Assembly (NCBI GenBank): GCA_965203905.1 | Contig: CBDBDQ010000005.1 | Coordinates: forward strand, 640,001 to 704,000 | DNA length: 64,000 bases | Direction: 5' to 3' | Source of the DNA: Spirochaetia bacterium | GTDB lineage: Bacteria > Spirochaetota > Spirochaetia > SZUA-6 > Bin103 | Shown here: piece by piece, positions 26,419 through 32,098 of the stretch | How the letters are laid out: each line of letters starts with the position of its first letter | How positions within the stretch are numbered: position 1 is the first letter of the stretch | Position numbers and translations under genes: made by a program | The notes under the pieces: generated by a model | What the model was told of the DNA's origin: nothing | Database searches by the model: none | The model's input: the letters and a program-made list of their open reading frames with translations, nothing else

Positions 26419-27962
26419 GCAAGAACCTGATCAACGACACCGAGCTGGCGCTGCGCAGCGCCCGGCAACTGCAGGAGCGGCTCGCCCGCGATCCCTACCG
26501 GCCGCGCTTCCACTTCCTGCCACCGGGCGGATGGCTCAACGATCCCAACGGGGCGCTCTACTGGCGCGGCCGCTATCACCTGTTCTACCAGTACTACCCG
26601 GACGCCGCGTACTCGGTGCTCGAGCATCGCGACGGCAGCCAGGAGCACCTGCGGATCTGCTGGGGCCACGCCTCCAGCAGCGACCTCATCCACTGGGAGC
26701 ACCACCCCGTCGCGTTGCAGCCGTCGCTGCCAGGCGTGGACGACAGGGCCTGCTTCAGCGGCCACGTGGTCGACAACGACGGCGTGGCGACGATGATCTA
26801 CTGCGGCATTCCCGGAGGGAGCTGCATCGCCACCAGCAGCGACTACCGGCTGGAGCGCTGGTCCAAGCACCCGCGCGTCGTGATCCCCCGGCCGCGGCCG
26901 GGCGAGCCGGAGCACGGCAGGTACGGGGCCTGCGACCCCTGCATGTGGCGGGAGGGCGACCGCTGGTATGCGCTGTGCGGCTTCCGCAGCCCGCGGGGCG
27001 GCGATACCGCCAGCCTGTTCCGCTCGCACGACACCCTGCACTGGGAGTTCGTGCACGACTTCTACGAGTCGCGGCGGGACTGGACCAGCGCGCGCGACGA
27101 CTGCGCGGTACCCGACTTCTTTCCGTTGGGCGACACCCACATGCTGCTGTTCATGAGCCACGAGACCGGCGCCCAGTACTACCTCGGGGATTGGCGCGAC
27201 GAGACCTTCCATCCCGAGGCTCACGGGCACATGAACTGGGCCGGAGGGCAACTGAACGCCCCGAAGAGCCTGCTGGACGCCAGTGGCCGGCGCCTGATGT
27301 GGGGCTGGGTGTGCGAAGCGCGCACCAAGGACGCGCAGCGCGCGGCGGGGTGGGCCGGCATGCTGTCACTGCCGCGCGTGCTGTCCCTCGATGCAGCGGG
27401 CGGTCTGCTGATCGAGCCGGCCGCGGAACTGCAGGTGCTGCGCCGCCACCACCGCCGCTGGACTGACCTGCGCCTCGGCGGCGACCACCCCATCCCCGAA
27501 GTGCAGGGAGACTGCCTGGAGCTGGCGCTGGAGTGCGACCCGGGCGACGCCGGCGAGGTCGGGGTTCGCGTCCGCTGCGCCCCCGACGGCAGCGAGTCCA
27601 CCGCCATCTCCTACCGCGCCGCGGCCGGTGAACTGGTGATCGATACCAGCGCCTCCAGCCGCCGTGGCGACCTGATGCAGCCGTGGCCGCGTCCGTGGGC
27701 GGCGCTGTTCAGCGATCCGGTCAGCAAGCTGCCCGCCACCGAGCAGGTGTACGTGCAGCGGGCGCCGCTGGCGCTGCAGCCGCGGGAGCCGCTCAAGCTG
27801 CGCGTGTTCATCGACCGCTCGGTGATCGAGGTGTTCGCCAACGACCGCCAATGCATGACCCAGCGCATCTACCCGGCGCGCCGCGACAGCCTGGGCCTGG
27901 CCCTGTTCAGCAACGGGGGCAACGCGCGCTGCACCACCCTCGACGCCTGGGACCTGGACTGA
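26415..27962 (+). CDS. Glycoside hydrolase family 32 protein
   Basis: 'RPRFHF', 'WLNDPNG', 'WGHASS.DLIHW', 'CFSG', 'LPRVL', 'LRVFIDRSVIEVF'. Confidence 0.9.
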   Translation: MSKNLINDTELALRSARQLQERLARDPYRPRFHFLPPGGWLNDPNGALYWRGRYHLFYQYYPDAAYSVLEHRDGSQEHLRICWGHASSSDLIHWEHHPVALQPSLPGVDDRACFSGHVVDNDGVATMIYCGIPGGSCIATSSDYRLERWSKHPRVVIPRPRPGEPEHGRYGACDPCMWREGDRWYALCGFRSPRGGDTASLFRSHDTLHWEFVHDFYESRRDWTSARDDCAVPDFFPLGDTHMLLFMSHETGAQYYLGDWRDETFHPEAHGHMNWAGGQLNAPKSLLDASGRRLMWGWVCEARTKDAQRAAGWAGMLSLPRVLSLDAAGGLLIEPAAELQVLRRHHRRWTDLRLGGDHPIPEVQGDCLELALECDPGDAGEVGVRVRCAPDGSESTAISYRAAAGELVIDTSASSRRGDLMQPWPRPWAALFSDPVSKLPATEQVYVQRAPLALQPREPLKLRVFIDRSVIEVFANDRQCMTQRIYPARRDSLGLALFSNGGNARCTTLDAWDLD

Positions 27963-28508
27963 CCAAGCCTCCCACGCCGGCGCCGCTTGGAAGGTGGCAC
28001 ATACTGGTCCGTTGAGATACGCTTGAGGACTCCAATGCTGAAGCGCGTTCAGGTCCGGGGCTACAAGTCGCTGGTCGGAGGTTCACCACCTGGGGCTCAT
28101 GGGTGAGGAGCTTGCCGCGTTCCTGAATACCATGAAGGCCCTGGACAAGGGCAGATTCTTGGCAGTCGAGAAGGCGCTGCAGGCATTGATGCCTCAGATC
28201 AGCGGAATCGAGCTTGAGGTAAGCGACCTTGGCGAGGTCGAGTTGCGTCTGAAGGAGGGTGGCATCGCCATACCCTCTCGGGTGCTTTCCGAGGGTGCCT
28301 TGCGAATGCTCGGACTGCTGGCGCTCACGGGCGCGAAAGACCCACCCGCTCTTGCTGTGAAACGCGCCGGTGCTTTGGGCGCACGGAAGCGTGACCGCGG
28401 GTTGGCGGCCCTTGGGCACGAGCAGGTGAGGTTCCAGATCGGCTCGGCGGTGCGGGCAGCCCCGTTCTATGGCCCGTCACGGCGCCGCGTGATACGGAAC
28501 CGTTCGTT

Positions 28509-29795
28509 TCAGCCGCGCGCTGCTGCTTGCACTTCGGCGAGAAAGCCGTGCCGGGTGAGCATGCGCAGCCAGCGCGGCGCGTTGCGCTCGACGACGAGCT
28601 TTTCGTAGTCGATGTCCGGATCGGTGTACGGCCGATCATCACGCAGTACGGCGTGGATTACTCGCAACAGCTTGTGGGCACTGGCGAGGATGGCCTTTTT
28701 GTAGCCGATGCGCCCGGCCAACATCCGGTGATGGCCGTAGAACTGCGAACTCTTGGTCCGCACCGCCCCGTGGGCGCACTCGGCCAGCGTGGCGCGCAGC
28801 GTCGGATTCCCTTTCCGCGCGCGCCCGGAGCGACGTTTGCCGGCGCTGTTGTTGTTCCCCGGGGCCACGCCGGCCCAGGGGCCGATAGAACACGCTTTGC
28901 GGAACGCCCCCAGGTCCGGCCCGATCTCGGCCAGGATGGTGCAGGCACTGCCGTAATCGATACCCGGAATCGTTTGCAGCAGCCGTAGCGAGCGTTGGTA
29001 ATCGGCCAGTACGGTCCGGATGCGCTTGTCCAGCGCCACCAGGGCGGTGTCGGCGCGGTCGACGGCCTCCATCTGCATGCCCAGCGCGAACAGCGCGAGC
29101 GGGTCGAGCGTGGCGGCCAGTGCCTGGGTCAGCGGCGCCAGCTTGGCGGCCACGTGGTGCGTCAGATTGGCCAGGATGTAACGCGGCGAGTGCCCGGCAA
29201 CCAACCCGTCGAGGATGCGCCGCCCGTTGACGCCGAAGATGTCGCTCAACACGCCGCCGAGCCGCAAGCCGTCGTGGTCAAGAGTCTTGTGGACCCGGTT
29301 GCGCGCCCGGCTGCGCTCGTCGACCAGTTTGCGGCGGTAGCGGGTCAACTGCCGCAGCTGCCGGAACAGACGTGGCGGAACGTAGCTCGGCAACGCCAGA
29401 CCAAACTGGCAGATACGCGCCAGCCACAGGCTGTCGTTGACATCCGTCTTCTTCCCGCGGATCTGCTTGACCTGCTGCGCATGGTGCAGATCGGCCTGGA
29501 TGCCCGCGTCTTCGAGCGCCTCGAACGGCGCCTTCCAGTAGACCCCGGTGCCTTCCATGGCCGCTGCCGTGACGCCGTGTCCGCACAGCCACTCGGTCAT
29601 GGCGCGCAGGCCGTCCGGCAGCGCGCTGAACTCCCGCGTAGCCGTGCGCGCCGGTCCGCTACCGGCCTCGCACAGCCGCACCGTGGCGGTGACGTGCATC
29701 TTGTGCACGTCGAGGCCGGCAGCGCGGGCACACACCACGTGCATGTCATCGGTGCACAAGGTGTCGCGGTCGCTGTCGACAGTGGTGTAACTCAT
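28509..29795 (-). CDS. IS110 DEDD recombinase/transposase
   Basis: 'GLDVHK', 'MEGTGVYW', 'KTDVNDS.WLA', 'LQTIPGI', 'WAGVAPGN..SAGK'; RBS AAGGAGG. Confidence 0.95.
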   Translation of the reverse strand: MSYTTVDSDRDTLCTDDMHVVCARAAGLDVHKMHVTATVRLCEAGSGPARTATREFSALPDGLRAMTEWLCGHGVTAAAMEGTGVYWKAPFEALEDAGIQADLHHAQQVKQIRGKKTDVNDSLWLARICQFGLALPSYVPPRLFRQLRQLTRYRRKLVDERSRARNRVHKTLDHDGLRLGGVLSDIFGVNGRRILDGLVAGHSPRYILANLTHHVAAKLAPLTQALAATLDPLALFALGMQMEAVDRADTALVALDKRIRTVLADYQRSLRLLQTIPGIDYGSACTILAEIGPDLGAFRKACSIGPWAGVAPGNNNSAGKRRSGRARKGNPTLRATLAECAHGAVRTKSSQFYGHHRMLAGRIGYKKAILASAHKLLRVIHAVLRDDRPYTDPDIDYEKLVVERNAPRWLRMLTRHGFLAEVQAAARG

Positions 29796-29812
29796 CAGCT
29801 ACCCTCCTTGAC

Positions 29813-30006
29813 GGCGGAAGCGGGCGAGCACGCCGGGTGCAGGAAACACCCGCCGCCAAGCGGGGTTCGATTTGCTGCTCGTCCACGGCCACAGGCCGGG
29901 TACGGTTCGGGGCTCGATGCCCAGCGCGCAGCGTCAGTTTGACAACGGGGAAGGGAGTCGTCTCCCGCCACCGAAAAGAGCTACGACGACTGTGCCCGCT
30001 TCCGCC
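29813..30006 (-). ncRNA. Candidate IS110 bridge/guide RNA
   Basis: In the 323-bp non-coding end; closed by perfect 13-bp IR GGCGGAAGCGGGC(29813-29825)/GCCCGCTTCCGCC(29994-30006), with several internal hairpins. RNA boundaries are inferred. Confidence 0.55.
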
Positions 30007-30418
30007 CCTTGAGGATGCCACGACACGCCTCCGCACCGAAACGCTTGAGACTCCGGGCCGACACGTCGTCCGCGTTTCATGTCGTCGGGGTGAGTGGTGC
30101 GCCGATCATGCAGGTTTGTCGGGTTCGAAGAGCCGGAGAACGGAGTCCATCCGGGACGCATCGCTTTGATCGCCGAACTGCTGAAGACCCAGGAGAGCTT
30201 CCGCAGAACCCAATACCTGATGACCACCCACTCTCCGCTTCTGCCGGATTTGCTGGAGGACCGGGCGCTCTTCGTCGTGCGTCGGACCAACAACAAGACA
30301 CAGGTCGACCCGTTCTCCACATGGGGTCCACTGGATCGCCGTTCAGGTATCGGGGAAGCGCTCGCCGACGGCGCATCGCAACTTTCCGTCTCAGAACGAA
30401 TTCTGAGAGGGGACTTTG

Positions 30419-30543
30419 ATGTATGAGATCGCGCTGTTTGGCGAAGACAACGCACATCGTCAGATCATTGACGCATTGGTACGGAAGATCGCCAATCAGC
30501 ATGGCATCACCGTCGAGTTGCGCTGGTCATACGTAAGTATCCT
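30419..30543 (+). pseudogene. Truncated TOPRIM-like partner of the ATPase
   Basis: MYEIALFGEDNAHRQII.. overlaps the ATPase stop; only about 40 codons survive, even after IS66 removal. Confidence 0.6.
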
Positions 30544-32098
30544 GTAACTATTCAGCCTGGGTGGCGGGCGTGAGGCAAGGCGGGGTCGTCGGGTGGCCGT
30601 CAAAGACGTTCGTCAGGGCTTCCAGTACGTTCAGGCCGTTCTTGCGGATGGTGGAGATATAGGATCTGGCCCGGCAGAAGGCGACAGCTCCTGCGGCGCT
30701 CCGGAACGTCCCAGATATCTTCTGCTGCACTTTCATCATCCGTAGATCTCGTTCCGCCAGGTTGTTGTCGAACGGCACCCCAAAGTCATCCATGAACGCC
30801 AACACCTGGGGCCAGCGGCCGGCCAGCCGCAGCAGCAGGTTGCGCGCTTTGCTCTGCTTCTTGCGACCGCGTTTCTTGGCGCTGCCCGGAACCTCGGGGG
30901 GCGCCGGGTTGGCCTGCAGTCCGGCGTTGATGATGCGGTGGTAGGCGGCCACATAGCGCTCCCGTACCGACTCGGGGAGCTGGCGACGCTGCTCCTGGAC
31001 TGCTGCCTCCACCGCGCCCTTGATCTCCACCAGCAACTCGATCAGGGTCGCTGCCCAGTCCTGCCCGTACTGTTCGTGGATGAAGGTCAGCTCCCGCAGA
31101 TGATGGCCGTTACACAGTCCATGGTCGCAGGGGTAACCAAAGTAGCTCTGCCAGTTATCGTGCACCGCCGTGCCGCCAAACTCGGGCAAGATGCCGATCG
31201 CCGCGAACGCTTCCCGGCCCCGCTTGGCATGTCCCTCGTAGTAGGTCAACAACTCCGTGCTCGCCACGTGCAGCCAGTGCAACTCGCCACCGATGCTCAT
31301 CCCGGTCTCATCAAAACACACCACTGGCTGAGTTCTCAGGGCAGCACGGAGTTGCTCGTTGATCCCGCTCAAGCGCTCGCCGCAGCGCTCGTTGATGGTC
31401 ACCAAGGTTCCCACGCTCACCGGGATCGAAAATAGATCCGCGAACAGCTCGGCCGTGCGCTGATACGGCAGCAACCCATAGTTGCGCAGATATGCCGCTA
31501 CCGCTTGCAGCCGCGGGCCGTACTGCACCGGCTGCGTGACTGCGGCGGGGAACTCGGCGGCGTTGAGCTGGCCGCAGTCCGGGCAGCGCTTGCGCTCCGC
31601 TCGATGCTCGCTGACCGCCACCGGCAGCGGCGGCAGATCGAACACTTGGCGGCGCTCGTAGTCTGCCACTGGCTCACCGTACAGTGAGCAGCCACACCGG
31701 CAACGCTCCACCGGGTGGATGGCAATCGTGTCCGGCTGCGCCACTTGGCGCAGTGTGGCGCCGGCATGCTCAGGCTGACCGCCCGCCCGCTTGGCGGTGG
31801 CGCGCTTGCGGCGTGATTGCTTGCGGTTCAGTTGCTTGCGTTGGAAGCTGTCGCGTGACGGTGGCTTGCCGCTGTCGTGACTGTCCTGCTTCAGTTCCTT
31901 GAGTTCCTGCTCCAGCGCCGTGATCCGTTGCTCCTGCTGCTCGATGATCCCTTCGATCAAGGCTAGCACTGCTTCCGGGCCGGCCGCGTAGACCTTGAGA
32001 ATCTCCTCCCGCGTGATCTTGAAGCTGGTGCCCACTCTCTGGCCTTCGGCCGGGAGCGCAGATTCCTTGAGCCTTTTTTCGCGGGGCTGAATAGTTAC
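30544..32098 (-). mobile_element. IS66-family element, single-ORF (ISBst12-like), 1555 bp
   Basis: Perfect 14-bp TIR GTAACTATTCAGCC / GGCTGAATAGTTAC; 8-bp TSD AGTATCCT at 30536-30543 and 32099-32106. Confidence 0.95.
30548..32035 (-). CDS. tnpC: IS66 transposase
   Basis: Coiled coil + 'DS..S.KPPS', Zn fingers 'CRCG'/'CPDCG', 'FDETG', 'VHD.W..Y', 'C.GHHLREL', 'VPFDNNLAERDLR'. Confidence 0.95.
   Translation of the reverse strand: MGTSFKITREEILKVYAAGPEAVLALIEGIIEQQEQRITALEQELKELKQDSHDSGKPPSRDSFQRKQLNRKQSRRKRATAKRAGGQPEHAGATLRQVAQPDTIAIHPVERCRCGCSLYGEPVADYERRQVFDLPPLPVAVSEHRAERKRCPDCGQLNAAEFPAAVTQPVQYGPRLQAVAAYLRNYGLLPYQRTAELFADLFSIPVSVGTLVTINERCGERLSGINEQLRAALRTQPVVCFDETGMSIGGELHWLHVASTELLTYYEGHAKRGREAFAAIGILPEFGGTAVHDNWQSYFGYPCDHGLCNGHHLRELTFIHEQYGQDWAATLIELLVEIKGAVEAAVQEQRRQLPESVRERYVAAYHRIINAGLQANPAPPEVPGSAKKRGRKKQSKARNLLLRLAGRWPQVLAFMDDFGVPFDNNLAERDLRMMKVQQKISGTFRSAAGAVAFCRARSYISTIRKNGLNVLEALTNVFDGHPTTPPCLTPATQAE

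Follow-up and report, generated by a model that had tools for sequence, protein, structure and literature searches.

An IS110-family element in a Spirochaetia genome with a probable bridge/seek-type guide RNA encoded upstream of its transposase gene

The DNA stretch considered here (the window) comprises 64,000 nucleotides of a Spirochaetia bacterium genome (assembly GCA_965203905.1, contig CBDBDQ010000005.1, positions 640,001 to 704,000) and carries an IS110-family insertion element of 1764 bp, with window breakpoints at 28352/28353 and 30118 and the transposase gene on the minus strand. The non-coding end located upstream of this gene very probably encodes a bridge/seek-type guide RNA for IS110 recombination at an AA core, with a target close to G-(A/U)-C-AA-GAGC. 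At the level of sequence comparison, the fold of this RNA and the base-for-base tracking of flanks and element ends by its loops were demonstrated with approximately 35 relatives in total, with 35–81% transposase identity. An earlier reading made from the window sequence alone (the sequence-only reading) had paired the IS110 recombinase with a structured guide RNA encoded upstream, and this pairing is supported by the covariation of the helices together with the covariation of the loops with flanks and termini. The description of the pair as a new programmable recombinase–RNA system was overstated; the pair would add a further member, or a variant, to a family already established as using bridge/seek RNAs. 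Coordinates below are those of the window, and all features of the element are located on the minus strand and described in the transposase sense.

The transposase/recombinase gene (28509..29795, 428 aa) belongs to the IS110 family with its DEDD domain, as had been proposed, according to Pfam (DEDD_Tnp_IS110, E 1.5e-23; Transposase_20, E 9.3e-19) and NCBIfam (NF033542, “IS110 family RNA-guided transposase”, 238 bits against a cutoff of 140). Residues D29, E81, D118, D121 and S317 do not vary among 20 relatives. The solved IS621 and ISCro4 recombinase structures are distant matches (E 7e-11), the KTDxxD block and the serine region can be aligned with IS621, and we take the conserved residues to be the equivalents of the corresponding numbered IS621 residues. 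The gene is preceded by the ribosome-binding site (RBS) AAGGAGGG (29802..29809), and the non-coding ends of the element are 320 nt long on the upstream side and 155 nt long on the downstream side.

The element is present in three copies in the genome, designated A (the copy in the window), B (100% identical) and C (95% identical), which have sharp ends in common; public metagenome contigs from sponges and corals also break off at these positions, 28352 and 30118. The element had previously been extended to 30121; copies B and C and the metagenome contigs demonstrate that the last three of these bases belong to the flank. The empty site of copy A can be reconstructed, as had been claimed, because its flanks form one continuous frame and match adjacent parts of the Pfam AAA_21 model (positions 184–258, a weak match with E 0.065, and 264–302, E 5.5e-10), and the junction strings quoted for the empty target (CCCGCTC-TTG-TCGGGTT) and the circle junction (TGCAGGT-TTG-CTGTGAA) were correct. 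The 3-nt core read from these strings had to be shortened. The functional core consists of 2 nt, AA in the transposase sense, since the preceding flank base is C, T or G in relatives; the shared TTG is this core plus one base that is coincidentally equal in flank and element, and copy B has only 2 nt in common at the junction. The core is located at 28352..28353 at the right-end junction, according to the junction bases of copies A, B and C, and at 30116–17 at the left end, where it is followed by A-C-CTG-CATG (30107–15; together 30107..30117). Terminal inverted repeats and target duplication are absent, and the short core is found in both the target and the joined ends of the three own copies and of multi-copy relatives.

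The right end (28354..28508, 155 nt, non-coding), delimited by the boundaries of the copies, contains the left-donor bases CAGC (28354–57) and one arm of a subterminal repeat (28358–66). In all relatives, the left end begins with an A-run, C, NNN and CATG, and the right end finishes with TT(T/A)CA, four bases and the A-run; starts of the form AAAC-NNN-CATG were found in 23 of the 25 listed relatives. The left terminal region also carries a C-box, CACCCCG (30086..30092), which is kept in all 25 aligned upstream ends.

The relatives included 37 loci with 51–81% identity, obtained from contigs representing one genome per species, and since several of the genomes contained multiple copies, the element ends could be fixed independently. 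Additional insertion sites were supplied by the genomes of five relatives with 11–48 matches each. Protein relatives are abundant and include copies that are 97–99% identical, and 358 records in a plasmid collection, all below 60% identity, are named only “IS110 family”. At the same time, a DNA search of 24 genomes of the family yielded short coding matches only and no close relative of the element, and none of the JGI metagenome loci exceeded 41% identity.

The RNA domain comprises 196 nt (29813..30008) and is closed by stem P1 (29813–25 with 29994–30008), which ends 3 nt from the RBS; this is the domain of about 190 nt, closed by a 13-bp repeat beside the RBS, that had been noticed in the window. 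Alignment of 25 upstream ends with MAFFT revealed conserved blocks, and RNAalifold predicted 31 pairs, 22 of which had compensatory changes. Pairing was possible in 92.2% of the cells, against 43–49% when the partners were slid by 1–3 columns, and the covariation score was 0.408, against no more than 0.125 in these slid controls; none of 500 shuffles reached the observed values. The RNAalifold pair list contained 47 G-U/U-G cells versus 14 A-C/C-A cells, and this excess favours the transposase-sense strand. A covariance model built from the central 85 positions yielded matches to the RNA at 15 of 99 additional loci outside the training set (35–44% protein identity) and at 4 other loci, always on the transposase strand and always upstream of the gene, except for a second match in locus L050, which carries a nested copy. 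No Rfam family was found over 27800–30700 at E values up to 1.

Inside P1, the domain comprises an internal loop flanked by P2 and P3 and, as its second part, a multiloop closed by P4 and holding the hairpins Pmid and P5. The target loop is closed by P2 (5′ arm 29985..29988, paired with 29932–35), with four pairs, three of them changed on both sides, and 95% pairing. The stem-loop P3 (29946..29973), located between the target guides, keeps its position in 25 relatives. The MAFFT alignment does not follow the structure in P3 and P4; P4 was therefore tested in each sequence separately, and scoring did not include the P3 helix, which varies in length. P4 (5′ arm 29920..29929, paired with 29828–37) closes the donor multiloop and is formed as a duplex of about 10 bp, with differing sequences, in all 25 relatives. 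The multiloop contains the near-invariant single strand J1 (29904..29919, CAUCGAGCCCCGAACC), Pmid (29881..29903; 10 pairs, five compensatory, 94% paired) and the covarying hairpin P5 (29847..29869), which includes GGGTTCGA at 29863–70. A separate observation concerns J1 and the CCCCG box of the left terminal region (30086–30096): the one to three bases following this box match those following the GCCCCG box in J1 more often than in shuffled sets (first base 16 of 24 versus 5.8, 0/20000, with phylogeny uncontrolled), and as both have the same sense, they cannot pair with each other.

A covariation check on homologues, such as the sequence-only reading had proposed, revealed that the loop bases track the flanks and the terminal DNA across relatives. 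The clearest case is the 3′ strand of the target loop, S2 (29936..29945), which contains the putative left-target guide (LTG) GUC-AA-AC, overlooked in the sequence-only reading: GUC at 29941–43, AA at 29939–40, and AC at 29937–38, the latter being identical to the first two element bases. Among 24 elements (copy C was excluded as having a duplicate guide), positions −1 to −3 of the left flank carried the three guide bases in 61 of 72 cells, compared with 27.6 after shuffling (0/20000), and a blind column scan returned the same guide position, with 96% identity at flank position −1. The A-run in the guide was as long as the A-run at the junction in 24 of the 25 listed elements, the exception being L053 (6 versus 7). 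Out of sample, in eight distant elements with natural flanks whose left end was located by a generic pattern, 23 of 24 left-flank bases fitted. Moreover, 10 of the 17 parsed hits contained, 94–119 nt further upstream, a second occurrence of the exact word of 7–8 nt composed of three guide bases, the A-run and 2 nt, with CATG or AATG after it; three of the seven misses had less than 75 nt of sequence available. In the distant elements, the two bases after the core vary (CC, CA, CG and CT) and S2 varies alike; S2 therefore appears to read the flank, the core and the element's first two to three bases.

S1 (29974..29982, RNA AGCUCUUUU), the 5′ strand of the target loop, is the candidate right-target guide (RTG). 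The motif AAGAGC at 29976–81, already picked out as a target guide from the window alone, is this guide, and it was supported by the family test: in 20 elements the informative match sum was 37, against 25.3 for shuffled assignments, and 6 of 5000 shuffles reached this value. Five elements were left out of the test (one duplicate, two tandem junctions and two without a located right end). Complementarity to the core and right flank extends over 6 nt in copy A and 7 nt in copy C. The additional insertion sites agreed with both guides in three sets: for L018-type elements the left flank was CC in 5/5 and the right flank an A-run followed by G in 5/5; for L029-type elements, TGAG in 6/6 and ATGCGG in 6/8, with one mismatch in the other two; and for L046-type elements, CACG in 4/4 and AAAGA in 4/4. 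In two further sets, the right guide is composed mostly of U's and specifies only an A-run, and the left flank had C at −1 in 9/9 and A at −2 in 8/9 sites for L034-type elements and C at −1 in 6/6 sites for L044-type elements.

In the donor multiloop, strand S3 (29870..29880, RNA GAGCAGCAAAU) has the same sense as the left-donor (LD) terminus plus core and is the putative left-donor guide (LDG). The previously reported donor match TTTGCTG (29871–77) is this guide, a sense copy of the right-end terminus and core. Agreement between the LDG and the right-end terminus amounted to 107/132, versus 86.9 after shuffling (0/20000), with covariation across the termini CAGC, CGGC, TAGC and GAGA and, in distant elements, CGGT, CGCT, TGGG and TAGT. 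The 3′ strand of the same multiloop, S4 (29838..29846, UUUCCUGCA), occupies the place expected for a right-donor guide. A 6-nt sense identity between S4 and the left end in the window copy was considered and rejected as unsupported, because there is no covariation with the left end and the family test gave no signal.

The 9-bp subterminal repeat noted earlier (28358–66/30071–79) is real and covaries. Its left arm, g5 (30071..30081, RNA CAUGAAACGCG), is complementary to the right end at 28358–66 and agreed with right-end positions −5 to −13 across relatives in 164/220 cells, against 126.8 after shuffling (0/20000), in a constant register 4 nt from the LD end; the arms lie 36 nt (left) and 4 nt (right) from the core. 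Both the g5 and the LDG pairings also hold in distant elements (for g5, in L055, L056, L070 and L071). With a chance not far below even, this repeat acts as DNA, either as a symmetric protein site or as a DNA or RNA hairpin across the circle junction, and not as an RNA guide. L041 and L046 have a longer, gapped repeat of about 33 bp, which is long for a guide, one mismatch, in L041, places an RNA-G opposite a DNA-A without the possibility of wobble, and the subterminal repeats of IS1111 elements are described as DNA features in the published accounts that deal with them. The covariation of the variable positions in many lineages requires base pairing, which is provided in either case, as DNA or as guide RNA.

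The guide RNA most likely operates as follows. Read in the transposase sense, the upstream end folds with P1 closing two modules. In the first, the internal loop between P2 and P3, the 5′ strand GCUCUU complements the top strand of the core and right flank, and the 3′ strand GUC-AA-AC, having the sense of the left flank, the core and the first two element bases, would base-pair across the left junction with the bottom strand. In the second module, the multiloop closed by P4, the strand CAGC-AA has the sense of the right-end terminus and core. A further segment, UGAAACGCG, located nearer to the 5′ end, complements positions −5 to −13 of the right end. Transcription, protein binding and strand exchange are inferred from the work on IS621 and ISEc11. 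By this analogy, the DEDD/Ser recombinase would bind the guide RNA, the RNA would pair the circle junction CAGC-AA-ACCUG with a target close to G-(A/U)-C-AA-GAGC, and the strands would be exchanged within AA, which would leave no duplication. As the guides are short, the left half-site would dominate target choice, and such dominance would fit the tandem and nested copies seen in relatives.

These arrangements are as follows. Head-to-tail tandem copies joined exactly in the order end-core-end were found in L036, L046 and L051 and in the genomes G094 (e.g., C11:48453-56771), G095 and G096; G094 contains 48 copies in arrays of up to five. The arrays may be assembly artefacts of metagenome-assembled genomes based on long reads. 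Abutted ends are visible at the tandem junctions of relatives, and the joint of a circle junction was not seen in the metagenome contigs examined, which were contigs only. L050 (2037-5606) contains one copy with a second, complete copy inserted in its S2 (LTG-encoding) DNA precisely at the AA, and the DNA of the guide itself apparently served as the left half-site.

Several results weigh against the interpretation of the upstream end as a guide RNA or limit its support. The fold energy of the upstream end is unremarkable (z = −0.79), with 21 of 100 shuffles folding equally well. As to a transcript, RNA-library contigs from one study cover 29913-30118, and such contigs give neither RNA ends nor levels and may derive from carried-over DNA; stretches of the element lacking this cover were not counted as evidence. 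A consensus search revealed no sigma-70-like promoter in the upstream end or at a tandem junction. The shuffle tests ignore the kinship of the elements. Since a guide-derived probe served to find the right ends of the single-copy relatives, the donor tests are partly circular, being fully independent for the eight multi-copy elements only. Support for the RTG is weaker than that for the LTG, several relatives specifying only an A-run. The search for a right-donor guide was negative: S4 agreed with the left end (the right-donor side) no better than shuffled assignments, either in the sense (78 versus 74.5; 1010/5000) or in the antisense orientation (73 versus 73.2; 2915/5000), no alignment column covaried with the left-end NNN (best value 0.6), and no consistent complement or copy of this NNN was found in the elements. 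Finally, the right flank of copy B fits the RTG poorly, with a single A before T at the right junction.

With the matches in the window sequence alone mostly within chance and the fold energy no better than that of shuffles, the question was settled by the comparison with relatives. The earlier caution that matches of 6–8 nt could be fortuitous was justified for the target matches: a match of at least 8 nt occurred in 408 of 1000 dinucleotide shuffles, and the 15 six-mer hits compare with a mean of 10.1 (reached by 156/1000 shuffles). The donor matches go modestly beyond chance (a 9-mer in 25/1000 shuffles; nine six-mers against a mean of 2.9, 18/1000), and the relatives support two of the three matches.

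Copy B (G000:C3:84394-86159; L002/L012) has a left junction with the full A-run, and its flanks form an inverted repeat, CTCTG..CAGAG. It may have been inserted at a core-mismatched site, with subsequent resolution of the heteroduplex; its empty site was not found. Copy C (G000:C5:1998285-2000054; L003/L015) carries 1-nt indels that break the transposase frame, so that its protein match is limited to residues 53–329, and its guide segments are intact. Unoccupied perfect copies of the 10-nt target motif number two in the 8-Mb genome, against 20 for a reversed control pattern, which are too few to call a depletion.

It is possible, at rather less than even odds, that the clade represents an IS1111-type (seekRNA) lineage whose non-coding region has moved upstream rather than an IS110-type lineage. 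In the relevant passages of PMC11187229 and PMC11208158, the top-strand complement of IS1111-type seekRNAs is placed 5′ of their match to the bottom strand; ISEc21 and IS621 show the reverse arrangement, and the element here has the order of the IS1111-type seekRNAs. The clade also has a covarying subterminal inverted repeat, and its donor guide is located in a multiloop, as are the donor-binding bases of many IS1111 members described in PMC11208160. According to the corresponding part of PMC11187229, the non-coding region found in IS1111-type elements (ISEc11, ISPa11 and ISKpn4) lies downstream of the transposase gene, with rare exceptions that have it upstream, such as ISMtsp17, and the repeats lie 7 bp from the left end and 3 bp from the right end. 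The upstream position of the region, and a left repeat arm 36 nt and not about 7 from the core, speak against an IS1111-type origin; in addition, database names say only “IS110 family”.

That the upstream end is instead an mRNA leader controlling transposase expression, with the protein alone recognising target and ends, is very improbable. The closing stem does end 3 nt from the RBS, and P5 followed by U's resembles a terminator, yet a leader cannot account for the agreement of loop bases with the outside flanks, seen at many insertion sites and in about 35 elements, nor for their agreement with the far right end; a regulatory role beside guiding may exist. P5 together with UGUUU (29849-29864, minus strand) scores as terminator-like and could mark the 3′ end of a shorter RNA form, yet P4 and P1, which extend 3′ of P5, covary. 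Least credible of all is the IS621-like layout in which GGGTTCGA (29863-70; RNA UCGAACCC), proposed as a target guide from the window alone, reads the target flank beside the donor guide. The 8 nt that it shares with copy A's left flank, at a distance of 2 nt from the core, constitute a chance match of a length frequent in shuffles. They belong to a strand of the conserved stem P5 that is unchanged in L018 and L040 despite their different flanks and targets, have no counterpart in the flanks of copies B and C, and lie apart from the covarying left-target guide.

As to distribution, at least 20 public runs, mostly labelled as metagenomes of sponges and corals and belonging to 11 studies, carry the element or parts of it, yet no close transposase was found at E 1e-120 in 91 other genomes of the host's order, which suggests horizontal spread. 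An RNA-library contig of run X18 contains a variant copy with 95% identity that has an RBS and start codon on its right-end side, before 28352. In the window, the element interrupts an AAA_21-type ATPase gene (28099..28351, continuing at 30119-30423, plus strand), identified by Pfam AAA_21 and its continuous frame; this gene lacks the first approximately 180 model positions and had probably been reduced to a remnant already, in a region rich in IS elements. The neighbourhood also includes a gene of an IS66-family transposase (DDE_Tnp_IS66, zf-IS66; 30548-32035, minus strand), at a distance of 430 nt from the element, and a GH32 glycosidase gene with its end at 27962. At the level of the genome, the finding is ordinary: a mobile element in an already truncated ATPase gene.

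The wider value of the clade is in the RNA. Recombinases with bridge/seek RNAs are under development as programmable genome-writing tools, and knowledge of their mechanism comes mostly from IS621 and a few others. The clade offers a natural, well-sampled variant, with dozens of elements, many insertion sites and guides mapped to single bases, in which guide order, the junction-spanning left guide and donor recognition, in which a right-donor guide is apparently missing, depart from the pattern of IS621. Experimental confirmation of this variant would reveal which features of the IS621 scheme hold generally, and left half-site recognition could explain the tandem and self-nested copies. A further-reaching proposal, unlikely in our estimation, is that these elements form a widespread IS110 sub-lineage with its own RNA logic: an inverted polarity of the target loop, an LTG spanning the recombinant left junction in a bottom-strand “handshake”, a right end read twice (by a sense guide at the core and an antisense segment further in), and a fixed A-C-NNN-CATG in place of an RNA guide for the left-end donor side. 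Records that would belong to it come from Acidobacteriota, Proteobacteria, Bdellovibrionota, Desulfobacterota and Actinobacteria, and, if the proposal is true, strand exchange would follow a different order and target choice would be driven by the half-site. The RNA of the clade may already be contained in the supplementary covariance models or tables of Durrant et al. (PMC11208160).

Comparison with known systems was made through their published descriptions. As far as the account of IS621 in PMC11208158 extends, the target loop there is composed of a stem, the LTG (50–58), a stem-loop and the RTG (77–80), and the donor loop is a simple internal loop. The element in the window shares with IS621 the DEDD and Ser recombinase, the guide RNA encoded upstream, the 2-nt core and the absence of duplication, as well as a target loop in which one guide has the top-strand sense of the left flank and core and the other complements the top strand over the core and right flank, and a left-donor guide in the sense of the LD and core. 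The misfit with the IS621 layout suspected in the sequence-only reading is genuine, because the target-loop guides are reversed here, with the RTG (29974–82) located 5′ of the LTG (29941–43). Set against the same description, the donor guide here lies in a multiloop and a closing stem joins the two modules; the LTG extends 2–3 nt into the element's own end. The guides, at 3+2+4 nt, are shorter, the search for a right-donor guide gave none, and an additional 5′ segment complements the right end.

The IS1111-type elements, as described, share the RTG-first order, the subterminal inverted repeats and the short flank matches, and differ in that the RNA region is located upstream here and the repeat arms lie 36 and 4 nt from the core, compared with 7 and 3 bp. 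ISEc21, an IS110-type element treated in PMC11187229, likewise encodes its guide RNA in the upstream non-coding region; the top-strand match is reported 3′ of the bottom-strand match there and is 5′ here. In the portions of the reports concerned, tandem repeats arose as by-products in experiments with CazIS110-1 (bioRxiv 10.1101/2025.10.25.684509), and matching of half of the guide sufficed for “half-match” recombination by IS621 (10.64898/2026.08.31.748434); the tandem and nested copies of the relatives, which are genome arrangements only, fit a comparable reuse of the left half-site. Taken from sequence and from these descriptions, the clade thus appears to combine an IS1111-like RNA logic with an IS110-like position of the RNA.

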